Of a stretch of 64,000 bases of DNA, positions 28,927 to 45,235 are shown in pieces; position 1 is the first letter of the stretch, and every line of letters begins with the position of its first letter. The notes under the pieces are model-generated. The model saw nothing but the letters and a program-made list of their open reading frames with translations, had not been told where the DNA came from and did not search any database. The DNA is from Candidatus Eiseniibacteriota bacterium (GTDB lineage: Bacteria > Eisenbacteria > RBG-16-71-46 > SZUA-252), in assembly GCA_035716085.1 (NCBI GenBank), contig DASTKC010000169.1, forward strand, positions 11,162-75,161, read 5' to 3'. A program made the position numbers and the translations under genes.

Positions 28927-29410
28927 TCCAGCGCACGTCCCCCGACTTGAGCCGCCGCTCCCGGTAGCCCACCGCTTCGAGGAATCGCTCCCCGTCGTCG
29001 AGCCCCATCGGGACCTCCGCCGTGATCGACTGCGCCGCGTGCTCCTCGGCGAGGAACGCTTCCACCATCTCGAGCGCGGCGCGGCCGTATCCATGGCCCC
29101 GCTCCGCCTGCGAGAGCACGAGGCCGCGCAGCACGGACGGCACCTCGTCGGAGCCGACCTCGACTTCGATCGTCCCGATCAGCGCCTTCGTGTCCGTGCG
29201 CCGGATGGCGAAGTAGTAGCGGCTGTCGTCGGCGATCGCCTCTTCATACATCTCTTCCACGGTATTCGGATCGAAGTCCGAGGTGCCGCTCAAGGCCTCG
29301 AAGTAGTCTGGTGCGTCGAGGTAGACCTTCCAGATGGTGGGCAGATGCTCCGGTCCCGGCACCTCCAGCGTGACCAGGGGACCGTCGAGACGGGTGGTGG
29401 ATTCGCTCAT
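28907..29410 (-). CDS. GNAT family N-acetyltransferase
   Basis: About 167 aa. GHGYGRAALE motif-A-like segment. ATGA-type overlap with the upstream protease gene. Confidence 0.6.
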   Translation of the reverse strand: MSESTTRLDGPLVTLEVPGPEHLPTIWKVYLDAPDYFEALSGTSDFDPNTVEEMYEEAIADDSRYYFAIRRTDTKALIGTIEVEVGSDEVPSVLRGLVLSQAERGHGYGRAALEMVEAFLAEEHAAQSITAEVPMGLDDGERFLEAVGYRERRLKSGDVRWIKRLEA

Positions 29411-32331
29411 CGTAGGAGAACGGCCTTTTGCGTGCGCACCCGGTGCCCGGACCGTAGCTGGATGAAGTAGACGCCGGTCCCGACCGGATTCCCCCGGTCG
29501 TCGGTGCCGTCCCACGTGAACGGCGAAGTACCCGCGCGGCCGGACAGGTCAGCGAGGGTGCGCACGAGCGACCCGTCGGCACGATAGACCCGTACCATAA
29601 AGCGGCCGTCCTGGTCCAGGGACACCGGGAACGAAGCGGCGCGCGCGAACGGATTGGGCTGCACGCGGCCGATCGCGAACACGCGCGGCGCGCCGCCAGG
29701 GCCCACGCCTGCCGTCACCGCCGCGTTCACGGGGCCCGCCGTGCTCGACGGCTCACCGTCGCGTGACACCGTGAGCCAGTAGTCGTAGTCCACGCCCGCG
29801 GTCACGTGTTCGTCGACATAGGTGCCGCTCCGGGACTCCCAAGGAAGAATCGCGACTGTCTTCCGGCCGTCGTCCGCGCTCGCCCGCTCGATTTGAACGG
29901 TCGAGCCCGTATTCTCGGACAGATTCCATTCGAGCCGCACGCCCGGCCGATCCAGGAGCGCGATCGCGTTGAAGCTGTTGATCGCGATCGCCGTCGCGGC
30001 GCAGTCGTCCGTGCCGGCCACCTGCACGTCGTCGATCCACCAGCCCAGACCTTCGTTCGGGGGGACGGACCGGAAGTGGAACGCGAACTGGACGGGACCG
30101 CTCAGACCGTCGAGCGGGAAGACCGCTTCGGCGAACGTTGCCTGCGTGCCGGTCCAGCGGAAGCCGTTCGAGTAGCCGCCCACCGGGACGATCGTCGTCC
30201 ATGTCTCCCCAGCGTCGACGGATACCTCCACGTTGAGGCCGTCCACGCCGGGCTCGGTCGAGTACCGCTGCCAGAAGCGGAGCGTGTCGGCGGGACCGGC
30301 CAGCCAGACGGGCTGGCTCACGAGGCGCGCGTCCTCAGCCGGTGCGTATGTGTCGAGGGTGCCCGGCTTTCCGAGACGCCACGCCCACGTGCCCTTCGGC
30401 GTGTGGTTGATGCCGGCCTCGCGATGCCACTCGTTCACGCCGTCGCAGCCGAGCGGCACCGAGATCCAGCGGCGGATCGTGCCCTCGAAGGAATCGCAGA
30501 TCCCCGTCTTCGCGCCGACCAGGACCTGCACGCTGTCGCTGTCGACGAGGCCCGCGGACGCATGGACTCCGTGCGACACGCTCACGCCCCGCGGGTCCGG
30601 AGTGGGAAGGATCGTGGCCGTGATGCTGGAGCCCAGGCTGGTCGAGCTCGCGGCGATCGACCCGTACGTGATCGTGTCCGTGTCCACGCTCATGAAGGCG
30701 GGCTCGGGCCGGATCTTCGCGCCGAGGGATCCGGTGGCCGTGGGGCCGATGTTCAGGAGGGGGAAGTTGAGATGCACGACCTCGCCCGGCTCGGCGCGGC
30801 CGTTTCCGTTGTTGGGCGTGCCCAAAAGGGGAGCGTCGTCGACGACGATGGGCAGACGCCGCACGTCCACGCCGGTCACGAAGAAGCTCGCCATCACGTC
30901 CCCTCCGGCCTCGGCGATGTTCCGGATCGCGACCTGGCTCGGTACGTGGAAGCAGGAGGTCGCGCTGCTCGGACACGAGTTGCCGTTGAACGCGGTGGTG
31001 CCGAGCGGGCCCGGCCACGGATCGTAGCGATCGCCTCGATTGCCGTTCACCGAGGTGGAGACGCCGCAGACCTCCTTCGTGCCGAGCGCGCCCGCCGGTA
31101 GGTCGAGGTTCTGGTTTCCGGGGTGCCCTCCCTGCTCGGGCCCTCCCGCTTCGACCACGTCGACCATCTTGTGGGCGGGGTCGTCGTTGTTGGAGCGGTT
31201 CTCGTCGATGTGGTAGATGACGAGGCCGTGCGCGGGGCCGAGTCCCGCCTCGACCGAGGAGCGGACGAGCGTGGAATCGAAGCCGACCGGCTGCCGGTTC
31301 TCCACGAGGAAGTATTCGTTCGACTCCTGGCCGTTCGTCCACAAGCGGAAGACCTGGCCCGAGCTTTCGACGGGCGGGATGGTCACGCCCGATGAGTCCT
31401 GCGTCACCCAGGTCGGCTGGACCCAGCCGAGCCTCGCCTTGCACCACGCCGACATGTGCGCCGGCGTCGTGCCGGGCGCATGCGCGGGGGAGTGCGTGTA
31501 GAGCCCGTACGCCATCAGATCCCACTCGCCGTCGCCCGAGCTCTGGTTGTCGTCCAGGTCGTAGAGGTCAGGAAGCCCCAGGATGTGGCCGAACTCGTGG
31601 CAGAAGACGCCGATCGAGATGAGATCGCCCGCGCTGTAGTACGCCGAGTTGAGCCCCCACTCCTCGGGCTCCGTCGTGAATGCGTAGAGCGTGGTCCCGT
31701 CCAGCGTGACTCCCCCGGGGAGGTTCCACTTGAGCGACCAGATCTGGTCGACGCTCCCCGTCTCCTCGCCCCCTGGCCCCGCGTGCACGACGAACACGCC
31801 GTCCACGAAGCCGTCGCCGTCGCCGTCGAACTGGGACCAGTCGATGTCGGGGTCCGCGAGAAGCATCGCGTCCTGCGCCATCCCCTGCGCGTTCGTGGGA
31901 AAGGCGCCGAATCCCGACTGGCTGTTCACGTAGTACGAGTAGGGGTGGGGCGCCGTGTACCAGCGCGTCACCACGCCCTGCACGTCGAGCTGATTGCGCG
32001 AGACTTCGCGATAGTAGTCGCGGAAGCTTCCGGTCGGACGCGTGCCGACGCTGAAGAGGAGGCTGTCGTACGCCTCGGGCGGGTGCGCCAGCGTGTCCGC
32101 CGCGAGGTCGGGGAACTGGAGCAGGACGACGACCACTCGCTTGATGCCGGTCGTGGTCGCGCGCGCTTCCGCGAGATCCACCTCGGGAGCGCGATGAAGC
32201 TGTGAGTAGAGCGCGCGGGCGCGGGACACCGTGCGGGCGCCCGGCCCTGTGTTGTCGAGAGGAGGTGCGGCGTGAGCGGCGGTCGCGCCCAGGGCCAGGC
32301 ACACTCCAAGGAGCAGCCCTTGAAGGCGCAA
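29407..32331 (-). CDS. Secreted M6-like (InhA/immune inhibitor A-type) zinc metalloprotease with FlgD-Ig/T9SS-type C-terminal domain
   Basis: Signal peptide MRLQGLLLGVCLALGATAAHA. HEXXHXXGXXD = HEFGHILGLPD. C-terminus PNPFARAASFPVSL…RVYRADGSLVRTL…GVYFIQL…KAVLLR. Confidence 0.7.
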   Translation of the reverse strand: MRLQGLLLGVCLALGATAAHAAPPLDNTGPGARTVSRARALYSQLHRAPEVDLAEARATTTGIKRVVVVLLQFPDLAADTLAHPPEAYDSLLFSVGTRPTGSFRDYYREVSRNQLDVQGVVTRWYTAPHPYSYYVNSQSGFGAFPTNAQGMAQDAMLLADPDIDWSQFDGDGDGFVDGVFVVHAGPGGEETGSVDQIWSLKWNLPGGVTLDGTTLYAFTTEPEEWGLNSAYYSAGDLISIGVFCHEFGHILGLPDLYDLDDNQSSGDGEWDLMAYGLYTHSPAHAPGTTPAHMSAWCKARLGWVQPTWVTQDSSGVTIPPVESSGQVFRLWTNGQESNEYFLVENRQPVGFDSTLVRSSVEAGLGPAHGLVIYHIDENRSNNDDPAHKMVDVVEAGGPEQGGHPGNQNLDLPAGALGTKEVCGVSTSVNGNRGDRYDPWPGPLGTTAFNGNSCPSSATSCFHVPSQVAIRNIAEAGGDVMASFFVTGVDVRRLPIVVDDAPLLGTPNNGNGRAEPGEVVHLNFPLLNIGPTATGSLGAKIRPEPAFMSVDTDTITYGSIAASSTSLGSSITATILPTPDPRGVSVSHGVHASAGLVDSDSVQVLVGAKTGICDSFEGTIRRWISVPLGCDGVNEWHREAGINHTPKGTWAWRLGKPGTLDTYAPAEDARLVSQPVWLAGPADTLRFWQRYSTEPGVDGLNVEVSVDAGETWTTIVPVGGYSNGFRWTGTQATFAEAVFPLDGLSGPVQFAFHFRSVPPNEGLGWWIDDVQVAGTDDCAATAIAINSFNAIALLDRPGVRLEWNLSENTGSTVQIERASADDGRKTVAILPWESRSGTYVDEHVTAGVDYDYWLTVSRDGEPSSTAGPVNAAVTAGVGPGGAPRVFAIGRVQPNPFARAASFPVSLDQDGRFMVRVYRADGSLVRTLADLSGRAGTSPFTWDGTDDRGNPVGTGVYFIQLRSGHRVRTQKAVLLR

Positions 32332-32378: not shown

Positions 32379-33830
32379 TTATAGTTCGGCGGGAGCCGGC
32401 TTCGTGCGCCCGAAGCTCGAGCGCTCCTGCTTCCCCCAGCCACCACGCCCGAGAAGCATATCGACGAGCGCGCCCAAGCGGAAGAGGAGAGTCAGGATAC
32501 GGTAGGAGAAGTTTTCGAGGATGCCGATGGCCACCATCTGCGCGAAGTCCCCCCAGGACCGGTAGAGGCCGAACGAAAGCTCCTCGAGGAACACGGCGGA
32601 AATGGACAGGAACGCGCCCGACGTGATGGCGAGGAAGAGGAAGGCCCAGAAGTAGAGCGGATCGAGAAAGCCCATGAAGTACGCGATCGGGATGATGATG
32701 TAGCCCACCAGCTCCACGATCGGTCCCAGAAACTCGAACAGGAAGTAGTACGGGATGCCGATCCAGCGAAGCGTCCCGGAGTGCTTGCCCCAGATCAGGC
32801 TCTTGTGGCACCAGAGCGAATGGACCATCCCTCGGTGCCACCGGCTCCGCTGCCGCGCGAGCGCGCCCAACCCCTCGGGGACTTCGGTCCAGCAGATGGG
32901 ATCGGGCAGAAAGACGACCGAGTACTCGCGGTTCATCTCCCGCATGCGGCGGTGCAGCCGGAGCACGAGCTCCATGTCCTCGGTGACCGTGCTCGCGTCG
33001 TAGCCCCCGGCCTCGATCACCACATCCTTCCGGAACAGACTGAACACGCCCGAGAGAATGAGGAGGCTGTTCAGGGCGGACAGCCCGAGCCGGCTCGCCA
33101 CGAACGCGCGAAGGTATTCGACCACCTGGAACGCGGCGAGGATGTTCGTGGGGAGCTTGGGCTCGACCACGCGGCCGCGCTGGATCTTGCAGCCGTTCGC
33201 AACGCGCACCTGGCCACCGACCGCGATCACGCGATCCGGATCCTCGAGGAACGGGCGCACGACGCGCAGGAGCGCGTTCTCCTGGAAGACCGAGTCCGCG
33301 TCGACCGTGCAGAAGAGCGGATACCGGGACAGGTTGAGCCCCATGTTGAGCGCGTCGGACTTTCCGCCGTGCTCCTTGTCCACGACCACGAGGTTGGGCA
33401 CCGCGGACGAGCGATAGATCCCGCCGATCGCGCCCAGGGTCGTAAGCCTCCGCCGGTAGACGGCCTCGCGGCGCTCGAGCCCGAACTCCCGGACCAGCTT
33501 CTGGAGCGTGTCGTCCGTCGACCCGTCATTGATCACGATCACCTCGTGCTGCGGGTAATCGAGCGACAGCACCGAGCGCACCGAGTCGACGATGCCGGCC
33601 GATTCGTTGTACGCGGGCACGAGCACGCTGATCGGGAAGGTGAAGTGCGACTTCGCGACCGCCTCGTAGTCCGCGTAGAAGTTCTGCGCGAGGCGGCGGC
33701 GCATGTCGAAGAAGGAGAGGATCAGGAGCCCGAACAGGACGAGCTGGAGCGCGCTGAAGTAGAGCAGGATCACGAGGCTGATCGTGTTGATCAGATGCAT
33801 CGCCCAGGGCTCGAGGACGTAGCCGCTCAT
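32379..33830 (-). CDS. Processive family-2 glycosyltransferase (PgaC/IcaA/cellulose-synthase-like exopolysaccharide synthase)
   Basis: N-terminal TM helices. GT-A core (VLVPAYNES…DGSTDDT…TVDADS), QxxRW = QRSRW. C-terminal TM bundle. ATGA overlap with upstream HEAT gene. Confidence 0.8.
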   Translation of the reverse strand: MSGYVLEPWAMHLINTISLVILLYFSALQLVLFGLLILSFFDMRRRLAQNFYADYEAVAKSHFTFPISVLVPAYNESAGIVDSVRSVLSLDYPQHEVIVINDGSTDDTLQKLVREFGLERREAVYRRRLTTLGAIGGIYRSSAVPNLVVVDKEHGGKSDALNMGLNLSRYPLFCTVDADSVFQENALLRVVRPFLEDPDRVIAVGGQVRVANGCKIQRGRVVEPKLPTNILAAFQVVEYLRAFVASRLGLSALNSLLILSGVFSLFRKDVVIEAGGYDASTVTEDMELVLRLHRRMREMNREYSVVFLPDPICWTEVPEGLGALARQRSRWHRGMVHSLWCHKSLIWGKHSGTLRWIGIPYYFLFEFLGPIVELVGYIIIPIAYFMGFLDPLYFWAFLFLAITSGAFLSISAVFLEELSFGLYRSWGDFAQMVAIGILENFSYRILTLLFRLGALVDMLLGRGGWGKQERSSFGRTKPAPAEL

Positions 33831-34894
33831 CACGCCGTCTCCCGGTGGGGCGTCGGAACGATGCCCATGGCCGAGAGCCCCTCGGCGGCGCTGTCCCGCG
33901 CGAAGCGGTCCTCGCTCGTCAGGGTGCGGAGGAGGACGTCCTTCGACGGCTCGCCCAGCGAGACGAGCGCGTCCAGCGCGTTCTTCCTGACCCACCACGA
34001 CCGGTCGCGAAGAAGCTCGCCGAGCGCGTCGACATAGGCGGTGTCCTGGATCTTCCCGAGCGCCTCCGCCGCGTGCGCGCGCACGAACCAGATCGGGTCG
34101 TGGAGCAGAGGTGCTAAGAGCGGCGCCGTCGAGCGGTCGCCCACGTGCCCCAGCGCCCACGTCGCGGCGGAGCGCACGTCGGAATCGGTGTCGAGGAGCG
34201 CGTCCGCGAGCGACCGCGTCGCGCGCGGATCCTTGATCTCGCCGAGGATGCGGGCAGCCCAGAACCGCGCCTTGGGCGAGCCGTCGCGGAGCGTCTTGAT
34301 GAGGAGCGGCGCCGTGCGCGAGCCCATCTCGATGCAGATGGCCGCGATGCGCGCGGAGACGGCCTGATCGTGCTTGCCCAGGAGCGCGACCAGGGCTTCC
34401 TCCGTCGCCTGGAGGCGCATCCGCCCGAGGGAGCGCGCCGCGACGTTCCGGACGTCGGGGTCCCGGTCCTCGAGCGCGCTCAAGAGCGTCGGCACGGACT
34501 GCGGCAGCTTGAGCTCCCCCAGGATCCGCAGCGCGTGCGCGCGCGTCCACTTGAGCCGGCTCTTCGCGTCCTTCAGGTGCCGGTTCACCGCCCCCGACTC
34601 CTCGAGCGTGCGGAGCACGTCGAGGCGAAGGGACAGCTCGAGCTGGCTGATCTCCTCGGCCGCGAGCTCCGACCAGCGCCCCGAGAGCGACTGGACGATC
34701 CAGGGGAGCGCCTCGCGCTGCCCTTCGGGCGACCGGAGGAGGAGGAACCGCTTCCTCAGATTCTCGAGGAAGCGCTGCTTCGAATCCTCTTCCCGGTTCG
34801 AGTAGATCTTGTTGACGATGGCCGCGATGGTGGTGAGCGCGACGATCCCGAGGAGGAGGAGCAGCGTGAAGATGAGGGACTGGTAGTCGATCAT
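33830..34894 (-). CDS. Membrane-anchored HEAT-repeat (PBS-lyase type) protein
   Basis: N-terminal TM (LIFTLLLLLGIVALTTIAAI). At least 4 HEAT-like repeats (DPDVRNVAARSLG, DSDVRSAATWALG, DPIWFVRAHAAEALG, DRSWWVRKNALDAL). Confidence 0.65.
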   Translation of the reverse strand: MIDYQSLIFTLLLLLGIVALTTIAAIVNKIYSNREEDSKQRFLENLRKRFLLLRSPEGQREALPWIVQSLSGRWSELAAEEISQLELSLRLDVLRTLEESGAVNRHLKDAKSRLKWTRAHALRILGELKLPQSVPTLLSALEDRDPDVRNVAARSLGRMRLQATEEALVALLGKHDQAVSARIAAICIEMGSRTAPLLIKTLRDGSPKARFWAARILGEIKDPRATRSLADALLDTDSDVRSAATWALGHVGDRSTAPLLAPLLHDPIWFVRAHAAEALGKIQDTAYVDALGELLRDRSWWVRKNALDALVSLGEPSKDVLLRTLTSEDRFARDSAAEGLSAMGIVPTPHRETA

Positions 34895-34895
34895 C

Positions 34896-36554
34896 TCACC
34901 ACCGCGCCGATCCCGAGACCCCGAGGTACCAGGTCTCGTAGGAATTGTTGTCGACGGAGTAGGAGGCCTCGAGGCCGAGCGGGAGCGTGCCGAACGCGGT
35001 CAGGTTCAGATAGCCGCTCCAGGTGTGCGTCCAGATGTCCGCGAAGTTGGTGGAGTTGATTCCGGCGAACTCGTAGCGGAATCCGTAGTCGATCGCCGAG
35101 CGCTCCTCGTAGCCCGCGATGGAGACTCCGGCGGAGCCTCGAACGCTTCCGAGCGGGGTGAAGTAGCTCCGGCTCGTGAAGTCCCAGTCGCGATAGGTGA
35201 GCCGGCTGTCCACCGTGACGCTCGGAGTCCCCGTCTTCGCCCGGTAGGACGCGCCACCTCCCGCCGTCCAGCGGCGGTTGTCGTCGGAGTAGACCCCGCG
35301 GGAGACCAGGGCGTCCGCCGTGCCGCGCGCGCTCCACTGCCAGCCGACGCCGCCCTCGTACTCGTCCACGTGCCCCGGCACGAACGCGGTGTCGGGCGCC
35401 GTCTCCTTGAGCGCGATGTAGTCGCGATGAATGGCCCCGCGCGGCGTGAAGCGCCCCGAGAAGCGCCAGACGCGCGCGCCCCACCCGAAGAACGTGTCGT
35501 CCTCGCCGAGCGGGAAGAGCATCGTTCCGGGGTTCTGATCGAACGATCGATACTCGACCGAAGCCGCGGCCTGCCACGGATACCCTCGGAGGAACGAGCC
35601 GTCGATGCGCGTCACCACGCTCGACAGGTCGTAGTTCTTGGCGCTGCCGGCGCCCGGCGTTTCGACGAGATCGAGCCAGGAGACGCGTCCCGTGAACGTG
35701 GCTCTGCGGGCCATCGTGCCGCGCCCCTGGATGTAGGGGCCGTCGGTCTCGAGCGTGAAGTCGGGCGCGAGATCGACGTACTCGCGCTCGTGGGACGCGC
35801 TCCATCCCGTGCCCAGGGACGGCCTGAGGGCGGTCGCGACCGCGCCCTTTTCCTCGGCCATGGCCTCCGGGTCCGCATGCAGGGACTCGGCGCGCGTCAC
35901 GAAGCGGTCCGACGCGGTCGCGGCGCCCCGCCAGCGTGCGACCGACGCGAGGCCGAGCCACGCGTCGCCGGTGCGCGGATCCGCGGCGAGGATGCGCTGG
36001 TACTCGGTGGACGCCTCGGCGAGATCGCCGCTCCAGGAGAGGACGCGCGCGTAGCCGACCCGCGTCTCGAGATTCGTCGAGTCGGCCTGGATCGCGGTGC
36101 GGAACTCGCGCGCCGCTTCCGTGTGGCGTCCGGACCACGCGAGCACGCGCGCGTAGCTCGCGCGAAGCGTGGCGTCGTTCGGCTTCTTGGCGAGGAGCTC
36201 CCGGTACTCGGCGAGCGACTCGTCGTAGCGCCGCTGCCACGAGAGCACGCGCGCGAGGAGGAGCCGCGCGTCGTCGTTGTTCGGACGCATGCGGAGCTCC
36301 GACTGGAGGAGCGGGATCGCTTCGGCTTGCCGGTCTTCGCGAAGGCGCGCGCGCGCGGCATCGTAAGGGCTCACGCCCGCCGTCTGGGCGAGGGCGGGCG
36401 CGGTGTGCGCGAGGATGGCGATGAGGAGCGCCGCGCGGATCGCCGCGCGGAACGGCCTACGGCCGGTCGGCGTCGACCTTCTGGCTTCGGCTGGCTTCAC
36501 GGGCTTCCATTCCCTCGAAGGCGCGCTGGATGATGTCGGCGGAACGCTTGACAC
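34896..36554 (-). CDS. Outer-membrane exopolysaccharide export protein: N-terminal TPR repeats + C-terminal beta-barrel (PgaA/BcsC/PelB-like)
   Basis: Signal peptide. TPR region (…RLLLARVLSWQRRYDESLAEYRELLAKKPND…). C-terminal alternating amphipathic beta-strands ending in aromatic residue W. Alternative GTG start at 36500. Overlaps upstream gene by 44-98 nt. Confidence 0.6.
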   Translation of the reverse strand: MSSVPPTSSSAPSREWKPVKPAEARRSTPTGRRPFRAAIRAALLIAILAHTAPALAQTAGVSPYDAARARLREDRQAEAIPLLQSELRMRPNNDDARLLLARVLSWQRRYDESLAEYRELLAKKPNDATLRASYARVLAWSGRHTEAAREFRTAIQADSTNLETRVGYARVLSWSGDLAEASTEYQRILAADPRTGDAWLGLASVARWRGAATASDRFVTRAESLHADPEAMAEEKGAVATALRPSLGTGWSASHEREYVDLAPDFTLETDGPYIQGRGTMARRATFTGRVSWLDLVETPGAGSAKNYDLSSVVTRIDGSFLRGYPWQAAASVEYRSFDQNPGTMLFPLGEDDTFFGWGARVWRFSGRFTPRGAIHRDYIALKETAPDTAFVPGHVDEYEGGVGWQWSARGTADALVSRGVYSDDNRRWTAGGGASYRAKTGTPSVTVDSRLTYRDWDFTSRSYFTPLGSVRGSAGVSIAGYEERSAIDYGFRYEFAGINSTNFADIWTHTWSGYLNLTAFGTLPLGLEASYSVDNNSYETWYLGVSGSARW

Positions 36555-38796
36555 GTTCTTTAGTTATCGGCGTTTCCCACGTCGTCCATGAGTAGGACGC
36601 CTGAGGCGGTGTCTTGACCGTAAGCTCTTCATTCATAGTGCTTTGGATGGATCCGGCCGGACCCAGGACGAAGACCTCGCCTGGCTTCACGGGTTTGGCT
36701 CCGGCCAGGGTCGGCCCCAGCGAATCGGGACGGAAGCAGGCGGCCGTCGTGGCCCAGGCGAGAAGGCCGACGCCCGGCGTCTGGGTCGTCTCGATGTCCG
36801 CTGTTCCGTCCTTGTCGTCCAGCGCGGCGCGGGACGAGGGGTCGCCGACAACAAGGCCCCACGGAATTGCGATCTCCACCGTGGTCCCCAGCGAATCGAA
36901 GGCGCACTCGAGCCGCCCCCAATCGAAGTACTTCGCCGGAAAGAACAAGCCGTTCCGCGCGACGCGCTCGCGGTTCGTCTCCACGACGAGGGGAACGTAC
37001 GCGCCCGCAGCGTTCGCCACGGGTCGCGCCGGCGCGCGACCTCGCCGCCGCCAGTCGCGTCCGTCCCATTCCCTCATGAAGGACGAGACGTTCATCGCGC
37101 GATCCTGGTAGAGCTCCGCGCCCCCGCGCGGGCTGCCCTTGCTCGGAGGCGTGACCAGGAGCGCGAGCTCGGCGCCGCGGGACCACGAGACGGGAAGCGG
37201 CTGCGGAAGGCGACGGTCGCCGCGCGCGGGATCGAGCACGTCGAACGAGACTCCGAACGTGCGCACCGCGGGTTTGCGCGGCGCGACGTCGAGTCGCAGA
37301 TAGAGGGAGGTTTGATCGGATGTGACGTAGAGAGCGCGAAGCGGGGCTCCGCCCTGGACGGCGTCGGACGCCGCGTAAGGCGAAATCCCGCTCCAGTCGT
37401 CGATCGCGCCGTCGATACGAATGGGCGCGGGAGGGTCGAACGCCAGGAGACCGTAGTTCTCCTCGGGGTCGAGACGGTTCAGCCAGAGCGGATCGCGATC
37501 GCGTGGGCGCTCGCTTCGCTCGACGAGCCAGTTCACCTTGTACCACTCATCGAAGAGCGAGAACAGCAGCGATCCCGATGCGCCGGACTCGGCGATGTCC
37601 TCGAGGAGCCGGACGTCGTCCTGTCCCTGCTGGATCTCGGTGGCGCCACCGTGGTGGATGCCCTGCGGCTGCTGGTGTGCGACCCCGCGGCTGGTCGGCA
37701 CGCCGTATTCCCCGATCAGGAGCGGGATCCCGCGCGTGTGCGCCTTGAGGTCCGCGAGATAGCCGGCGTACGAGCAGACGCCGTGGCGGTCGTGGAACGC
37801 CTGGTAGTTCGGGTCGAGGTTCATGAAGTCGGGGTAGTAGGGATACGCATGGTAGTTCGCGAAGTAGCCGAGGAAGCCCGACGTGAGCGTGGCGGAATCG
37901 ACCGGCACGAGATGCGATGGATCGACGGAGTAAGCGTCCTCGTCGTGCTCCGCTTCGCCGCCACCCCGCTCGGTCTCCGTCGGGTGGCGCATCGGATCCA
38001 GCGTGGGCCAGTTCACGAACGAGACCGCGTGCGCGCGCGCGTAGTGGACCCGTTCGTAGGACACCGTGAGATCGCAGACGCGGCCGAGCCACGCTTCCAT
38101 CGCCGTGCCGTGCTCGACTTTGAACCGAGTGCCCGCGAATTCGGTGATGTCCGGATGGAGCCGCTGCGTCTCGCGCACGGCGTAGGGCTCCCATTCGCGG
38201 CCGATGAGCCACCCCGCCAGCCACGGGGAGACGTCCGCCTCGTAGCGCCCCGAGGCGTGCCCCGGGCGCTCGTCGACGATCGCGTTCCCGTGCACGGCGT
38301 CGATCGCGAGCCGGAGCTCGTTCTCGAATCCACGCGTGTACGCTTCGTCCCAGAAGTCGTTCCCGTCGGGCAGCTCGGTCCAGACTTCCTGGAAGAGCCA
38401 GATGGGATCGTTCGGATGCGCCTCGTTCTCCTCGCGCAGCGCTTCGTAGAAGCGGGGCGGATGGAGCGCGTACACGCGGATCGAGTTCGCGTGCATCGAG
38501 CGCGCGAACCGGAGCCAGCGGCGATAGTCTTCCTTCGTGATCGCGAATTCGCCGGGGTAATGCCCCGGGGGCGCGGCGCCCAGGTTGAGCCCGCGGAAGA
38601 AGACGGTTCGGGAGCCGGAGGGCGTCGCGATCTCGAATCGGTCCCCGCGCGCGAGCACCGCGCGTGTCGGTGGGGAGGGAATGGGCGCGCGTGGATCCCG
38701 GATGGTCTTCCACGGGCGCGGCCCGGCGTCTCCCGCGAGAGCGGGAAGGGCGCAGCCCAGGATCAGGACGGGGACCAGGATGTCGCGCAGCCGCAT
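36457..38796 (-). CDS. Secreted putative glycoside hydrolase (TIM-barrel, GH5/GH-like), probable polysaccharide-processing enzyme
   Basis: Signal peptide MRLRDILVPVLILGCALPALA. N-terminal region …FFRGLNLGAAPPGHY…ANSIRVYALHPPRFYEAL…IWLFQEVW… is TIM-barrel hydrolase-like. Family not assignable by eye. Confidence 0.45.
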   Translation of the reverse strand: MRLRDILVPVLILGCALPALAGDAGPRPWKTIRDPRAPIPSPPTRAVLARGDRFEIATPSGSRTVFFRGLNLGAAPPGHYPGEFAITKEDYRRWLRFARSMHANSIRVYALHPPRFYEALREENEAHPNDPIWLFQEVWTELPDGNDFWDEAYTRGFENELRLAIDAVHGNAIVDERPGHASGRYEADVSPWLAGWLIGREWEPYAVRETQRLHPDITEFAGTRFKVEHGTAMEAWLGRVCDLTVSYERVHYARAHAVSFVNWPTLDPMRHPTETERGGGEAEHDEDAYSVDPSHLVPVDSATLTSGFLGYFANYHAYPYYPDFMNLDPNYQAFHDRHGVCSYAGYLADLKAHTRGIPLLIGEYGVPTSRGVAHQQPQGIHHGGATEIQQGQDDVRLLEDIAESGASGSLLFSLFDEWYKVNWLVERSERPRDRDPLWLNRLDPEENYGLLAFDPPAPIRIDGAIDDWSGISPYAASDAVQGGAPLRALYVTSDQTSLYLRLDVAPRKPAVRTFGVSFDVLDPARGDRRLPQPLPVSWSRGAELALLVTPPSKGSPRGGAELYQDRAMNVSSFMREWDGRDWRRRGRAPARPVANAAGAYVPLVVETNRERVARNGLFFPAKYFDWGRLECAFDSLGTTVEIAIPWGLVVGDPSSRAALDDKDGTADIETTQTPGVGLLAWATTAACFRPDSLGPTLAGAKPVKPGEVFVLGPAGSIQSTMNEELTVKTPPQASYSWTTWETPITKERVKRSADIIQRAFEGMEAREASRSQKVDADRP

Positions 38797-38874
38797 GGAG
38801 ATTCTCCCGATGGGGTATTCGGGAACGATCGGCAGCTCAAGCCCCGTTCTGCAGCGGACGCCGCTCCGCGCGGC

Positions 38875-39561
38875 TCACGGAAAGAGCGCCCGGAGCGCGG
38901 CCTCGTGGTCCTCGAAGGAGTCGAGGAGCGCGTCCGGATCGCACGCGGCCAGCGCTTCACGGCTGATCGAGCCGGTCGCAACCGCGACGGCGCGCGCGCC
39001 GATGGCGCGGGCGCAGGCGATGTCCTTCGGCGTGTCGCCGATGACCGTCGTCTCGGAGCCGGAGAAGGCCCGGCCGGAGAGGACGCGCGCCTTCTCGAGC
39101 GCGATCTGCGCGAGGACGGCGCGATTCTCGTGATCGTCGCCGAAGGCGCCGAAGCGGAAGTACGGCTCGAGATTCCAGCGCCGAAGCTTGAGCCGGGCAC
39201 CCTGGTGCACGTTGCCGGTCAAGAGGCCCACGAGCACGCTGTCGAGCTTGTTGAGCCGCTCGAGCAGCTCCCGGACGCCGGGATAGAGGTGCGCGTCCTG
39301 ATGCTCGCGGACCTCCACAGCGAGTAGCTCCACGTAGCGCCGCAGGCACTCGTCGCGTCGAGCCAGGATGGTGCGCTCGTCGACGCCGGCCAGCCGCATG
39401 ATCTCGGTCACGCACTCCGGATCGGTCATGCCCGCGAAGCGAAAGCCCTCGATGGGTCCGGCGGTCTGATAGGTGTCGCGCAGCGCCCGGGCAAAGGCGA
39501 TCTTGGCCGCGATGCCGTCCCGTAGGAGCGTGCCGTCGATGTCGAAGAGGATGAGTCGCAT
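38875..39561 (-). CDS. HAD-superfamily hydrolase (phosphoglycolate phosphatase-like)
   Basis: Motif I LILFDIDGTL, motif IV GDTPKDIACA. Confidence 0.75.
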   Translation of the reverse strand: MRLILFDIDGTLLRDGIAAKIAFARALRDTYQTAGPIEGFRFAGMTDPECVTEIMRLAGVDERTILARRDECLRRYVELLAVEVREHQDAHLYPGVRELLERLNKLDSVLVGLLTGNVHQGARLKLRRWNLEPYFRFGAFGDDHENRAVLAQIALEKARVLSGRAFSGSETTVIGDTPKDIACARAIGARAVAVATGSISREALAACDPDALLDSFEDHEAALRALFP

Positions 39562-39610
39562 GAGGGGGCGCGGGGCGCCCCCCAGAAGTATCACGCGGCC
39601 CGAGGGCCGG

Positions 39611-40702
39611 TCAACGCGCGGCGGCGGGCTGCGCCGCTTGAGCCGCGGCCATCCCGCTCTCGAAGAGCTTCGGGTTGGTGGACCGTGAGAGCGCGGCCTG
39701 GGCCGTGATCTTGCCCGAGGTCACGAGATCCTTGAGCGCCTGGTCCAGCATGACCATGCCGTCCTTGGCTCCCACCTGCATCATGCTCGGGATCTGGGCG
39801 GTCTTGCCCTCCCGGATCAGGTTCCGGAGCGCGGGCACGCCGACCAGGATCTCGTGCGCGGCGACGCGCCCCTTGCCGTCGGCGGTCGGGATCAGGGTCT
39901 GCGCGACGACTCCCTCGAGCGACTCGCTCAGCATCGTTCGGATCTGTGCCTGGCGGTCGGCGGGGAAGATGTCGACGAGGCGGTCGATGGTCTTGGGCGC
40001 CGAGTTCGTGTGGAGCGTGCCGAACACGAGATGTCCCGTCTCCGCGGCGGTGATCGCGAGCGACGTCGTCTCGAGATCGCGGAGCTCGCCCACGAGGAGA
40101 ATATCCGGATCCTCGCGGAGCGCGCCCCGAAGCGCGGCCGCGAAGCTCGTCGTGTGCGCGCCCACCTCGCGCTGGTTGATGAGGCATCGCTTCCGCTCGT
40201 GAACGAACTCGAGCGGGTCCTCGATCGTGATGATGTGCTTGGGGAACGTGGCGTTCACGTAGTCGATCATCGCCGCGAGCGTCGTCGACTTGCCGCTCCC
40301 GGTCGGTCCCGTCACGAGCACGAGTCCGCGCTCCTTCGACGCGAGATCGCGGAGGATGGCTGGCCCCTTCAGCTCCTCGAGGGTCGGGACCTTCGTCGCG
40401 ATGACCCGGAACACGGCGCCGACGCCGCGGCGCTGCTCGAAATAGTTCGCCCGGAAGCGGGAGAGCCCCGGGATTTCGATGGCGAAGTCGAGCTCGTGCC
40501 GCTCTTCGAAGTCGGCCTTCTGGGCCGGGGTCAGCAAGGAGTAGAGCGCGTCCCGCGTCTCCTTCGGATCGAGCGGCGGCGTCTGGAACGGAACGATGTC
40601 GCCTCGCATGCGCGCCATGGGCGGCGACGCCGTCGAGATGTGAAGGTCGGACGCCTTCGCCTCGACGATCGCCTTGAGGAGCGCCTGGATGTCGACGGGC
40701 AT
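39611..40702 (-). CDS. pilT: Type IV pilus retraction ATPase PilT
   Basis: Walker A GPTGSGKSTT, Asp box, Walker B ILLVGELRD, His box GHLVFGTLHTNSA. Confidence 0.85.
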   Translation of the reverse strand: MPVDIQALLKAIVEAKASDLHISTASPPMARMRGDIVPFQTPPLDPKETRDALYSLLTPAQKADFEERHELDFAIEIPGLSRFRANYFEQRRGVGAVFRVIATKVPTLEELKGPAILRDLASKERGLVLVTGPTGSGKSTTLAAMIDYVNATFPKHIITIEDPLEFVHERKRCLINQREVGAHTTSFAAALRGALREDPDILLVGELRDLETTSLAITAAETGHLVFGTLHTNSAPKTIDRLVDIFPADRQAQIRTMLSESLEGVVAQTLIPTADGKGRVAAHEILVGVPALRNLIREGKTAQIPSMMQVGAKDGMVMLDQALKDLVTSGKITAQAALSRSTNPKLFESGMAAAQAAQPAAAR

Positions 40703-42189
40703 CAGCGTCCCTGACCTTTCCAGAGGCGCTCGCGGTCCTCGTCGCTCAGGATCGTGACTTCGAGAATGCCGGCCCGGTGCTCGGCCTCTTCCGGCTCCGC
40801 CCACGCCGAGGAGCCTTCATGGCGCGCGGTCGGCAGCGCGATCATCGCGAACGGACGATCGCGCAGCACGGCACGCCCGTTCGGGCTGTCTGCGAGGCAC
40901 TGGAGGAGGGCTTTCCCGTCCAGCCATCCCGTGCGGGCGAAGACGAGCCGCCCCACCGCGGCTCCGTCCAGGAGCTCCGCCACGGAATCGCCGTGAAGGA
41001 GGTCGTCCAGCACGACGATGTCCGCTCCGAGACCGACCGAGGCACGACGCCAGTTCACGCTGGAGGGGTCTCCGGCCTGGAACTGGATCCGGGTCACTCC
41101 CGCGGGATAGGGCGCCGTGGGCCACGGCTCGAAGGCGACGACGCGGCGCTCGGGCTTCATGGCGAGAGACGCGAGCGAGGCGAGCACGGTCGAGCCGCCC
41201 GCCCGCGGCGGGCCGTACACGATCACGAGCCCCTCCGGGCCCTCGACGAATTCGCGAATCTCGCCCTCGCCGAGCGGAGAGAGCCCGAGCAGCGAGAGAT
41301 CGGGCGCCTCGGCTCGATCGGGGTGGAGTCGAAGCACCGTCGTCACGCCGGAAGCGCCGCGAGCGTGGCAGACGCCGACGTGCACGCGATCGCCGCTCAG
41401 GTCGGCCATCACGTGCCCCTGGACTGCGAGCTCACCCATCTCCAGATCCGGCGCGCCCAGGTGCGCGAGGCGCGTGCGCAGGTAGAGCATGGTCTCCGGC
41501 TGCTCGACCCCGCGGGGCTCGAGTCCCTTGTCGGTCCGGTAGTGCACCGCGATGCCGCCCTTTTCCGGCACGAAGTGGATCTCGGACGCACGGTCGTTGC
41601 GCGCGGTATAGACGTGATAGAGGAGGAAGGTCGATCCAGAGCGCTCCCAGACCACCCGGTGGCGCGGCTCGCCCCCGGCCGCGGCCGCTATCGTGGCCGC
41701 CTCGGCCGCGCTCGCGCGCGCGGCGACCTTGTCCCGCGATGGCCGCTCCGGCCCGTAGACGTTGTCGAGCACCCGGCGGATCGACCCCTGGCAGCCGATG
41801 ACGAGCGAGACGGGCATCCCCGCCGCCTGCTCGATCTCCCTCACGGCCTCGGAGTCGGTGGGATCGGACATCGCGATGACCATCTCCTCCGGGTTCTGGA
41901 AGAGGGGCATCGCCTGGATGCGACGAAGGAGCGATTCGGGGAAGCGCCGGACGAGATCCATGTCGGCGGCGCCGGACGCGAGGTCCACATACGGAATGCC
42001 GAGCTGCTTGGAGAGGGCCCAGCCGATGTTCTCCTCGGTCGTGAAGCCCATCTCGACGAGGCTCTCGCCGATCAGGCGGCCGGTCTCGAGCTGCTGCTGG
42101 AACGCGGCATCCACCTGTTCCGGAGTCACGATCCCGCCGTCGATCAGGATCGACGCCAGGGTCCGCTTCGTCTGACCGGTCTCGCTCAC
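40702..42189 (-). CDS. MshEN-domain (c-di-GMP receptor type) protein fused to degenerate GspE/PilB-like ATPase domain
   Basis: N-terminus has two MshEN motifs (RTLASILIDGGIVTPEQVDAAFQQQ; RLIGESLVEMGFTTEENIGWALSKQ). C-terminal P-loop region degenerate (GPPRAGGST instead of GPTGSGKT; Walker B/His box not conserved). Start uncertain (GTG 42189, or ATG 42249/42288). ATGA overlap with pilT. Confidence 0.6.
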   Translation of the reverse strand: MSETGQTKRTLASILIDGGIVTPEQVDAAFQQQLETGRLIGESLVEMGFTTEENIGWALSKQLGIPYVDLASGAADMDLVRRFPESLLRRIQAMPLFQNPEEMVIAMSDPTDSEAVREIEQAAGMPVSLVIGCQGSIRRVLDNVYGPERPSRDKVAARASAAEAATIAAAAGGEPRHRVVWERSGSTFLLYHVYTARNDRASEIHFVPEKGGIAVHYRTDKGLEPRGVEQPETMLYLRTRLAHLGAPDLEMGELAVQGHVMADLSGDRVHVGVCHARGASGVTTVLRLHPDRAEAPDLSLLGLSPLGEGEIREFVEGPEGLVIVYGPPRAGGSTVLASLASLAMKPERRVVAFEPWPTAPYPAGVTRIQFQAGDPSSVNWRRASVGLGADIVVLDDLLHGDSVAELLDGAAVGRLVFARTGWLDGKALLQCLADSPNGRAVLRDRPFAMIALPTARHEGSSAWAEPEEAEHRAGILEVTILSDEDRERLWKGQGR

Positions 42190-42485
42190 GAGGCACCTCT
42201 GCGTCCGGGGGTTGGGAATCGATTCGGCCCTGGGCGAATCGCAAGGCATGTGCCATGCGTACCCCACGGCATGGCGCGCCAGGGCCATGGCCGCCGCCTT
42301 GCTCGATTCGGAGGGAACGCGGTGCGAAATGGCGAGTTGAGAAGCGATGAGCGGTGGGTCGCAGCCCCTGGCGGGGACCTCTACGCGGCTCCCGGGGCGG
42401 CGCAATGCTTGCCCCTTGCTCGGCCAGCGGTTATTTTCTGCGCGGTTTCCATGCAGCGCATCGACACCTCATCGGACGGGAGCCC

Positions 42486-44150
42486 ATGGCGCACGCACAA
42501 ATGAAACGGAAATCCGCCGACGCCACTGGAAAGAAACGGAAGTCCGGCTCCACCGAGCCCGAAGCCGCCGCTCCGTCGAAGAAGCAGCCCAAGATCGTGC
42601 GGCTCACCGCCACCGATCTCGCGGAGAAGCAGCGCGAGATCTCGGTCAGCGAGTTCTTCACCAAGAACCGCCATCTCCTCGGATTCGACAGCCCCGCGAA
42701 GGCCTTGTTGACGACGGTGAAGGAAGCCGTCGACAACGCGCTCGACGCGTGCGAGGAGGCGGGCATCCTTCCCGACCTCCTGCTCGAGATCCAGGAGATC
42801 TCCGAGACCCGTTACCGTATCGCGGTCCAGGACAACGGCCCCGGCATCGTGAAGGCTCAAATCCCCAAGATCTTTGGCCAGCTCCTCTCTGGATCGAAGT
42901 TCCACAGGCTGCGCCAGTCGCGCGGCCAGCAGGGGATCGGCATCTCCGCGGCCGGGATGTACGGCCAGCTCACGACCGGCAAGCCGATCACCGTGATCTC
43001 GCGGATCGGCGCCGGGAAGCCCGCGCACAAGTTCGACATCCAGATCGACACGCGGCAGAACCGGCCGGTCGTCGTGGCGGATCACGAAGTCGAGTGGACG
43101 CCGCAGCACGGCACGCGCGTGGAGCTCGAGATCGAGGCCACCTACAAGAAAGGGCGCCACTCGGTCGACGGCTACGTCGAGCAGACGGCGATGGCCAATC
43201 CGCACGCGCAGATCACGTACGTGGCGCCGACGGGCGAACGGACGGAGCTGCCGCGCGTCGCGAACGAGCTGCCGAAGCCCCCGCAGGAGATCAAGCCGCA
43301 CCCGCACGGCGTGGAGCTGGGCATCCTCTTGAAGATGCTCCACGACACGAAGGCCAGGAACCTCCGCGGCTTCCTGACCAGCGAGTTCTCGCGTGTGAGC
43401 GCCGCGGTGGCCGAGGAAATCGCCACCACGGCCGGCCTCTCCGGAGGCATGACCACGCAGAAGGCGGCGCGCGAGCAGGCCGAGGCGCTCTACAAGGCGA
43501 TCCAGGCCACGAAGCTCATGGCCCCACCGTCGAACGTGCTCTCGCCGATCGGCGAGGAGCTGTTGCTCGAGGGCTTGAGGAAGCAGATCGACGCCCGCTT
43601 CTACGCCGCGACCTCGCGGTCACCGTCGGTGTATCGCGGGAACCCGTTTCTCGTGGAGGCTGCCATCGCCTTCGGGGCGGAGCAGCTTCCGGCCGACGAG
43701 CCGATCACGCTGATCCGATTCGCGAACCGGGTGCCACTCCTCTACCAGCAGTCCGCCTGCGCGGTCACGAAGTCGGTGATCCAGACCAACTGGAAGTCGT
43801 ACGGCATCCAGCAGTCGCGCGGCGCGCTCCCGTCCGGCCCGATGATCATCATGGTGCACATCGCGTCCGTGTGGGTGCCGTTCACGTCGGAGTCGAAGGA
43901 AGCGGTCGCCTCGTATCCCGAGATCATGAAGGAGATCAAGCTCGCGCTTCAGGACGTCGGGCGGAAGCTCGGCATCTTCATCCGGCGCGGGATGCGGGAG
44001 GCGGACGCGGAGAAGAAGCGGTCCTATATCGAGAAGTACATCCCGCACATCGGGATCGCGCTTCAGGAAATCCTGAGCATCAGCGACAAGGAAAAGGACA
44101 AGGTCTGCGCGACCTTGAAGGACACCCTAGAGCGGAGCCGGAAGCTATGA
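42486..44150 (+). CDS. top6B: DNA topoisomerase VI subunit B (GHKL ATPase + transducer)
   Basis: Bergerat-fold motifs: N-box [10 protein letters not shown]1 DNGPGI, G2 [12 protein letters not shown]…KN…GF N-terminal signature. Lys-rich 40-aa N-terminal extension. Confidence 0.85.
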
Positions 44151-45235
44151 GCGATACCAACGTCGTTCCCAAGATCAAGAAAGAGGCGAAGGCCGTCGAG
44201 GAGTCGATCCTCAAGAAGAAGACGCCCTCGTTGAAGTTTCCCATCCGTTCGCTCGCGAACGTGAGGTATCTCGAGAAGGAAGGCTACTTCGAGATCCGCG
44301 GGAAGAAGAAGGAGCGGACGCTCACGGTCAACACCGTGAAGACGTTCGCGCAGACGTTGAGAATGATGGCCCTGTCCAAGACCTTGGTCGAGACGGACGA
44401 CATGGCGACCAAGCGAGAGGCGTACTACGTCTCCAAGAACTGGGACGACGCACGGTTCTTGGAGCAGACCGAGTCCGACACGGTGATGGACGACGTCGAG
44501 GCCTTGTTCGAGGTCAACCGCGAGCAGCTCGGATTCGTCCCCGAGGAGAAGGGGGGCGACGTCGCCGGCACCTTGGTCGTCGTGGACAAGGACCCCGATA
44601 CCGGCAAGTCGATCCGGATCGACTGCACCAAGTTCGGCTCCGGCGCGTACTCGATCCCGATTTCCGTGGAAGACTTGAAGTTCGAGACCAAGGCCAAGTT
44701 CATCCTCGTCATCGAGACCGCCGGCATGTTCCAGCGCCTCGTGAAGCACGGCTACTGGAAGAAGGCCAACTGCATCCTGGTCTCGATGGGAGGCGTGCCC
44801 ACGCGCGCCTGCCGCCGGTTCATCCGCCGGCTCGCCGACTCGATGAAGATCCCTGTCTACGTCTTCGTCGACGGCGATCCCTACGGCATCAGCAACATCT
44901 ACCGCACGTTCAAGGTGGGCTCCGGAAACGCGGCGCACATCAACGAGTTCTTCTGCGTTCCGCAGGCGAGGTTCCTCGGCATCACGCCCCAGGACATCAT
45001 CGACTACAAGCTCCCGACGCACCCCTTGAAGGACGTCGACGTGAAGCGCGCCAAGGACGCGGTCAAGAACGACCCGTTCTTCCAGCACCACAAGCCCTGG
45101 GTGAAGGCCATGGAGCAGCTCATGAGCATGGGGGTCCGCGCGGAGCAGCAGGCGCTCGCGGCCCATGGCTTGAACTACGTGATGGACACGTACCTGCCCG
45201 AGAAGATCGCGCACCCTGAGCGGTTCCTGCCGTAA
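44147..45235 (+). CDS. top6A: DNA topoisomerase VI subunit A (Spo11-like)
   Basis: CAP-domain catalytic Tyr context KREAYYVS. Toprim motifs ([10 protein letters not shown]; FVDGDPYG). ATGA overlap with top6B. Confidence 0.85.

Follow-up and report, generated by a model that had tools for sequence, protein, structure and literature searches.

Gene X lies in a 64-kb stretch of DNA (hereafter the window, i.e. the whole stretch that was analysed) of an uncultured soil bacterium of the Candidatus Eisenbacteria. It encodes a member of the PilB/GspE family of motor ATPases that has lost the catalytic motifs of this family, is kept by purifying selection and is coupled to pilT, the gene for the retraction ATPase of type IV pili. 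Together, these properties suggest a pseudoenzyme that arose within the motor family and became attached to the retraction module, and with it an undescribed control of pilus retraction. An initial annotation, made from the sequence alone, had read the gene as an MshEN receptor domain for cyclic di-GMP (c-di-GMP) fused to a degenerate ATPase. The control of retraction is far less understood than that of extension, and the extension motor is the target of all known c-di-GMP inputs (the MshEN domains of MshE and PilB, and FimX-PilZ).

Fold, catalytic motifs and conservation of X

Based on profile searches, X carries an MshEN-type domain at its N-terminus. Pfam MshEN (PF05157) matches residues 63–149 with 71.6 bits (cut-off 23.1, E-value 5.5e-20) and the NCBIfam model NF053729 ('c-di-GMP_motif') matches residues 13–62 with 46.2 bits (cut-off 38), so that the MshEN call of the initial annotation passes the profile thresholds on which it had been made to depend. 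Both 24-residue MshEN motifs fall N-terminal of the Pfam match and within that of NF053729, a model that is matched by all 25 members of X and its sister family Y that were tested. The NfrB model NF008411 also matches X, over residues 7–168. Further downstream, Pfam T2SSE (PF00437) is found on residues 195–354 with 44.6 bits, covering only positions 18–177 of the 370 in the profile. The scores on the equivalog models for PilB (TIGR02538, 89.7 bits, cut-off 675.65) and for GspE of the type II secretion system (TIGR02533, 63.3 bits, cut-off 630.25) are below threshold. The best sequence matches in the PDB are Thermus thermophilus PilF, the PilB proteins of Geobacter and Myxococcus, and Vibrio cholerae MshE. 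An AlphaFold2 model built from 30 family sequences has a pLDDT (predicted local distance difference test) of 77.5, with values below 50 over residues 150–185. Its best Foldseek matches are GspE, PilF, PilB and PilT4 (E-values 1e-19 to 1e-13), a GspE-GspL complex being the top match. Because of these profile, PDB and Foldseek matches, X is assigned a PilB/GspE-type fold with the N1D-N2D-CTD (C-terminal domain) architecture of extension ATPases.

To place the catalytic motifs, X was aligned with PilF and PilB by HMMER, and with the PilT of the window and canonical PilB/GspE sequences by MAFFT. Both methods align the P-loop of X, GPPRAGGS, exactly on the canonical Walker A motif GPTGSGK[ST], and the catalytic lysine is gone. 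A shifted but intact Walker A or B, the possibility on which the first reading by eye might have failed, is ruled out since the two independent alignments agree and no other GK[ST] is present in the whole protein. The Asp box, canonically 'tiEDPvEy' (EDPvEy), is replaced by 'afEPWPta' (EPWPTA). At Walker B, X reads 'ADIVVLDDLLH' in the place of 'PDIImVGEIRD' (LDDLLH versus VGEIRD), and the position of the catalytic glutamate is variable (D/G/E) among the relatives. The His box 'TGHLVfsTLHT' is replaced by 'VGRLVFARTGW'. In the same MAFFT alignment, the tetracysteine (Cys4) zinc module of approximately 45 residues, present in the canonical PilB/GspE sequences, is deleted in both X and Y, and the CTD of X also lacks the last ~45 residues of PilB. 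The lysine-less P-loop and the non-conserved Walker B and His box of the initial annotation are therefore borne out, with the Asp box and the zinc module as further losses. Taken over X and Y together, the positions of the former lysine and the former catalytic glutamate vary freely, which argues against a relocated catalytic residue. As every catalytic element is lost, X is predicted to be unable to hydrolyse ATP, and its classification as a pseudo-ATPase is strongly supported by the alignments.

More than 200 relatives of X, a lower bound, came out of a protein search. The 120 relatives that were listed are 477–584 amino acids (aa) long (most of them 477–518) and 52–94% identical to X. Every one of them has a lysine-less P-loop, which reads GPPRxGG[ST] except for two with GPARAGGS. 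In an alignment of 30 sequences, G326, P327, P328, R329, G331, G332, D390, L394, R414, R419, T420 and W422 are invariant. The mean column conservation is 0.74 in the degenerate CTD core versus 0.76 in the N-terminal motifs and N-domain, and is lowest in the linker of residues 150–185 (0.53). The ratio of non-synonymous to synonymous substitution rates (dN/dS), computed against two close orthologues, is 0.16–0.17 for X overall and 0.05 for pilT, taken for comparison. Within X, it ranges from 0.03–0.085 in N1D, the most constrained part of the protein, to 0.16–0.25 in the CTD and 0.35–0.50 in the linker. The X and Y families together comprise more than 190 clusters in two subfamilies, with intact full-length open reading frames (ORFs). 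Since the degenerate motifs are fixed and dN/dS is low, X is a pseudoenzyme kept by purifying selection and is not decaying.

Family Y forms the second tier of a search with a CTD-only profile against 1.84 billion representative proteins, which gave 433 matches, 42 of them at an E-value of 1e-10 or lower. Y proteins are approximately 500–525 aa long and ~38% identical to X, with an MshEN-type N-terminus as in X and a C-terminus that is ~40 residues longer. Their P-loops are without lysine as well, this position being G, C, V, A, R or L (e.g. GPPRSGGST, GPPGAGVTT, GPARAGCST, GPTGSGCST and GPPRSGRST), and the replacements at Walker B ('ADVVVLDxV') and the His box ('GRLVLARTDW') are common to X. 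About 70 Y clusters were retrieved, and both clusters bearing organism names are labelled Eisenbacteria.

A separate family of lysine-less PilB-like proteins has an N-terminal helix-turn-helix-like segment (MPERLYSxYQVADLLG) and includes P0162, P0166, P0169, P0171, P0172, P0179, P0181, P0185 and P0196. Its aligned members (P0162, P0169, P0171 and P0172) have the P-loop GPPRSG[R/I][TSA]T and a degenerate Walker B, and have kept the Cys4 zinc motif. Judging from these alignments, the origin of dead PilB-like proteins may not have been a single event.

Coupling to pilT in two gene families

The gene that follows X encodes a canonical PilT, scoring 494.8 bits on TIGR01420 (cut-off 319.1) and having all its motifs intact (GPTGSGKS, VGELRD, TGHLVFGTLHT and ALRNLIRE). 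The stop codon of X and the start codon of pilT were thought to overlap as ATGA, but in fact share a single nucleotide in TGATG (cgcTGATGccc). In all 37 X-type loci of Eisenbacteria having downstream sequence, pilT begins between −4 and +2 nt from the stop of X; the junction is the 1-nt TGATG overlap in most of these loci and ATGA in eight. The operon of the window holds PilT only and no PilU.

The neighbourhoods of Y are unrelated to that of X, and Y is therefore an independent test of the coupling to pilT. In 35 of the 37 informative loci, a pilT gene lies −11 to +28 nt behind Y and encodes a PilT 60–68% identical to that of the window. A second paralogue usually comes next, with intact Walker motifs and without AIRNLIRE, i.e. 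PilU-like. The Y-PilT-PilU operons (L041, 11634–13980; L042, 4037–6262; and ~20 other Y loci) contain retraction motors only. Two exceptions were found among the Y loci with enough downstream sequence, L040 and L072. In L040 (11567–13860), pilT is apparently split or disrupted, with a 132-aa fragment, an opposite-strand gene and a 209-aa T2SSE fragment; in L072, pilT is absent within 4.5 kb downstream of Y. The conserved module is a pseudo-PilB with PilT and, where present, PilU, and a functional tie of X to the retraction module is supported by these gene orders. The initial annotation had proposed X as a regulatory partner of PilT. The link itself stands, as the junctions are conserved in two genomic contexts, while the regulatory role goes further than the junctions do.

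MshEN motifs and possible roles of X

According to the published consensus, (R/K/L)LGxx(L/V/I)(L/V/I)xxG(L/V/I)(L/V/I)xxxxLxxxLxxQ is present twice in c-di-GMP-binding MshEN domains, with a 5-residue spacer (PMC11731258). X has two such 24-residue motifs at residues 10–33 and 39–62, as first read from the sequence, with a 5-residue spacer and each ending in glutamine. No variation is seen at Q33, at Q62 or in the hydrophobic ladder across the X family alignment. Motif II (L39-I40-G41...G48...Q62) agrees with the consensus, having leucine at position 1 as in GSPII-B of PilF, a 6 nM binder, and motif II of Y is fully canonical (R-I-G-E...Q). Motif I (T10-L11-A12...G19...Q33) has no R/K/L at position 1 and no glycine at position 3; in an alignment with MshE (5HTL), T10, A12 and Q33 of X correspond to R9, G11 and Q32. 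Among 121 X-family sequences, position 1 is T in 89, R in 14 and G in 11, and position 3 is T in 82, A in 15 and C in 14 and is never glycine. An arginine directly before the motif, R9 of X, is present in 103 of the 121. In motif I of Y, position 3 is likewise never glycine and position 1 is variable. In GSPII-A of PilF, serine at position 1 abolished c-di-GMP binding, alanine at position 3 cut it 10–30-fold, and a restored consensus was still non-binding within the full domain (PMC12002112).

Because the deviations of motif I stand against the invariant glutamines and ladder, R9 and the NF053729 matches, the odds that X binds c-di-GMP are judged from its sequence to be roughly even. The high-affinity c-di-GMP module is thus the doubtful part of the initial annotation, as motif I reads T-L-A in X and T-L-T in most of the family. 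With Thr/Ala in half-site I, the domain could bind c-di-GMP less tightly, recognise a different ligand or serve in protein binding, and it is a test case provided by nature for the MshEN motif positions that a ligand requires.

We give an even chance to the reading that X is a PilB-derived, non-catalytic regulator or adaptor partner of the retraction module. X derives from a pilB-type extension ATPase, having kept the three-domain architecture and lost the catalytic elements, and would be made together with PilT in stoichiometric amounts via termination-reinitiation at TGATG. Being PilB-shaped, it might dock at the PilB site on the PilM/PilC platform and so control the access of PilT, or also of PilU in the case of Y; alternatively, it might bind PilT directly. 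Either way, X would set the timing of retraction-motor engagement. The strongly constrained N1D would be the input domain, probably for a nucleotide second messenger, with c-di-GMP as the first candidate. From the domain and gene arrangement we infer that X would interact with PilT or the platform, in which direction it would regulate and what it would bind.

Several observations weigh against this reading. Motif I deviates at two positions that are experimentally relevant to c-di-GMP binding. Canonical pilB genes elsewhere also often precede pilT (metagenomic loci L104–L123), and the adjacency of X or Y to pilT may be partly inherited rather than newly selected; judging from gene order, a pilB-pilT operon is its probable origin, the arrangement having been retained since. 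Moreover, the X-type loci all share a single large block of synteny in which unrelated genes, e.g. those of topoisomerase VI, are also found, so that gene order within the X subfamily, taken alone, says little about function.

A possible but somewhat unlikely alternative is that X is a ligand-independent structural adaptor, which scaffolds or localises PilT and has kept N1D for protein contacts, as in the binding of GspE N1 to GspL. The glycine-free and variable positions of motif I in both families would fit such a role, as would the abolished, weakened or unrestored binding of GSPII-A in PilF (PMC12002112) and the GspE-GspL complex as top Foldseek match. However, Q33, Q62 and the ladder would then be invariant without a ligand, motif II is canonical, the curated c-di-GMP_motif model is passed, and no part of X is more strongly constrained than N1D. 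The domain could also serve the genes behind pilT, a cluster encoding a HAD hydrolase, a 779-aa secreted protein, a TPR/beta-barrel protein, a HEAT-repeat protein and a processive glycosyltransferase family 2 (GT2) synthase. This cluster looks like a synthase-dependent exopolysaccharide (EPS) system with no obvious c-di-GMP receptor, its GT2 resembling BcsA and hyaluronan synthase but being without a PilZ domain. That X signals to this cluster, as the second-messenger receptor for the PilZ-less GT2, seems unlikely to us. It would agree with the co-directional, tightly spaced arrangement of the cluster in the window, with its syntenic position behind X-pilT in all long X-type loci, and with the activation of GT2 enzymes such as NfrB by MshEN domains. 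There is a precedent in Myxococcus xanthus, where Walker A mutants of PilB raise EPS and nucleotide-free PilB signals to EPS production (PMC11656802). On the other hand, the cluster is absent from Y-type loci, and the Y relatives keep the coupling to PilT/PilU without EPS genes nearby; the X block also holds unrelated genes (topoisomerase VI and ZnuA), its synteny reflecting lineage as much as function.

It is very unlikely that X is a still-working extension ATPase with a non-canonical site, e.g. with R329 acting for the lysine. The glycine-rich loop and the following Ser/Thr are indeed kept and R329 is invariant in the X subfamily, but this arginine is not conserved in Y (GPPGSGGS, GPTGSGCS and GPPGAGVT), the lysine position varies freely, the catalytic glutamate position may be D, G or E, and the Asp box, both histidines and the zinc module are gone. 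A functionless, decaying pilB relic is extremely improbable. X evolves faster than its neighbours, with 51–60% identity versus 66–80% for PilT and ~90% for Top6A, yet its ORF is intact and full-length in the more than 190 clusters, the motifs that replace the canonical ones do not vary, and dN/dS, low over the whole gene, goes down to 0.03 in N1D; a decaying pseudogene is ruled out by dN/dS and by the invariance of the replacement motifs.

The reading that ties a non-catalytic X to the retraction module can be extended, at the price of becoming distinctly unlikely. X and Y would then be the first dedicated second-messenger receptor of this module, with a dead hexamer at the PilB dock handing the machine to PilT/PilU on binding a cyclic dinucleotide, possibly one other than c-di-GMP because of the conserved Thr/Ala in half-site I. 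In a stronger form, X could be the sole PilB homologue in these genomes, PilT-type motors driving both extension and retraction.

The locus and its relation to known systems

The features of the locus are listed in Table 1. The reading frame of X runs from a GTG start at 42189 to a TGA stop at 40704–40702, and this start is supported by homologues that begin at the same residue. The G+C content of the window is 62–71%, and its closest public relative is a metagenome-assembled genome contig of Candidatus Eisenbacteria (L006), whose X protein is 96% identical. Real genes were told from artefact ORFs by a G+C content at third codon positions of 0.85–0.94. Very long ORFs on the opposite strand or in other frames over real genes between 34891 and 42504 are high-G+C artefacts, for instance 36643–39327 (+, 894 aa) and 40777–42504 (+, 575 aa).

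Table 1. Positions of X, its motifs and the adjoining genes in the window
Feature	Position	Strand	Residues and remarks	Basis
Gene X, predicted PilB-derived pseudo-ATPase	40702..42189	−	495 aa; N1D (MshEN-type), linker, N2D, degenerate CTD	ORF and start codon; Pfam, NCBIfam, PDB and AlphaFold2/Foldseek matches
GAGG, Shine-Dalgarno-like	42196..42199	−	6 nt 5' of the GTG of X	Read in the sequence
MshEN motif I	42091..42162	−	Residues 10–33, TLASILIDGGIVTPEQVDAAFQQQ; non-canonical position 1 (T) and position 3 (A)	
MshEN motif II	42004..42075	−	Residues 39–62, LIGESLVEMGFTTEENIGWALSKQ; Leu at position 1, agrees with the extended consensus	
MshEN C-terminal subdomain	41743..42003	−	Residues 63–149	Pfam PF05157, 71.6 bits
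Linker	41635..41742	−	Residues 150–185; predicted disordered, poorly conserved	pLDDT, conservation, dN/dS
Segment between linker and C-terminal RecA-like domain	41290..41634	−		T2SSE profile positions 18–177; fold matches
Degenerate C-terminal RecA-like domain	40705..41289	−	Residues 301–495	
P-loop without lysine	41188..41214	−	Residues 326–334, GPPRAGGST	
Walker B remnant	40993..41028	−	Residues 388–399, GADIVVLDDLLH	
His-box remnant	40918..40953	−	Residues 413–424, GRLVFARTGWLD; both His lost	
TGATG junction	40700..40704	−	X stop and pilT start share 1 nt	Context cgcTGATGccc
pilT, canonical retraction ATPase	39611..40702	−	363 aa; ATG at 40702	
Cluster 3' of pilT	32379..39594	−	Co-directional, possibly co-transcribed; context only	

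Upstream of X, the X-type block contains Top6A and Top6B, divergent from X; in the window, Top6B is at 42486–44150 (+) and Top6A at 44150–45235 (+). The topoisomerase VI pair stands beside X in all X-type loci of Eisenbacteria and is 76–92% conserved. The block also includes ZnuA. Within the downstream cluster, the 779-aa secreted protein gave no Pfam or PDB sequence match, and its counterpart in the X-type relatives is ~760 aa long. Most X-type relatives have an additional gene between pilT and the HAD gene, encoding a signal-peptide protein of ~240 aa (L001, 10622–11344; L003, 10638–11390); this gene is missing in the window and in L006 and L007, its two closest relatives. As first reported, no pilB, pilC or pilM-Q lies nearby: no other type IV pilus gene was found by Pfam among the ~50 ORFs of the window that were scanned. 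Elsewhere in the window, an M6 peptidase (29407–32331, −) and a beta-propeller protein (8486–10876, +), both large and secreted, have a C-terminal FlgD_ig-like domain, which may be a lineage-specific sorting or anchoring domain. A sigma-54-dependent response regulator of NtrC/PilR-like architecture (230–1621, +) and a Cache-HAMP hybrid histidine kinase (26563–28926, +) are also encoded, for which no link to the pilT locus was established.

In the source annotations, X and Y proteins are called 'ATPase, T2SS/T4P/T4SS family', 'PilB', 'MshE' or 'hypothetical'; the first three of these automatic labels are misleading for hundreds of metagenomic proteins. In the literature, no description was found of a PilB pseudo-ATPase, of a degenerate Walker A combined with MshEN, or of Eisenbacteria pili relevant to X.

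Among the known systems, PilB, MshE and PilF (MshE 5HTL, T. thermophilus PilF 6F8L, Geobacter PilB 5TSH/5ZFR and M. xanthus PilB 3JC8) resemble X in their three-domain layout and fold, in the two 24-residue motifs with a 5-residue spacer and in the pilB-pilT gene order. Unlike them, X is without the Walker A lysine, the Asp box, the Walker B glutamate, the His box and the Cys4 zinc module, its C-terminus is shorter, and its motif I has neither glycine at position 3 nor R/K/L at position 1. FimX-PilZ-PilB of Pseudomonas and Xanthomonas offers another likeness, as there a degenerate enzyme homologue linked to a second messenger regulates a type IV pilus motor (PMC11656802, PMC8389850). However, FimX has degenerate GGDEF/EAL domains, is of unrelated fold and acts on the extension motor PilB, whereas X is a homologue of the motor and is tied to PilT.

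PilU, an accessory retraction ATPase that depends on PilT, is related to the PilT family, is encoded beside pilT and acts with PilT, and the Y operons hold both; in contrast to X, which is PilB-derived, predicted to be inactive and equipped with a sensor-type domain, PilU is an active ATPase without N1D. NfrB, an MshEN glycosyltransferase, shares with X the MshEN module as regulatory input, but its output is an active GT2 and polysaccharide synthesis instead of a dead ATPase linked to PilT. Non-catalytic or atypical partners of NTPase fold that organise or regulate a motor are also present in archaea (FlaH/ArlH with FlaI) and in Tad pili (TadZ/CpaE). FlaH/ArlH have a KaiC-like and TadZ/CpaE a ParA-like fold, without an MshEN domain, and to our knowledge none of them is derived from the motor family itself. 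If the proposed role holds, X would show clearly how a motor ATPase can become a pseudoenzyme, and a dead but selected PilB paralogue hard-wired to PilT (and PilU) would represent a new type of regulator.

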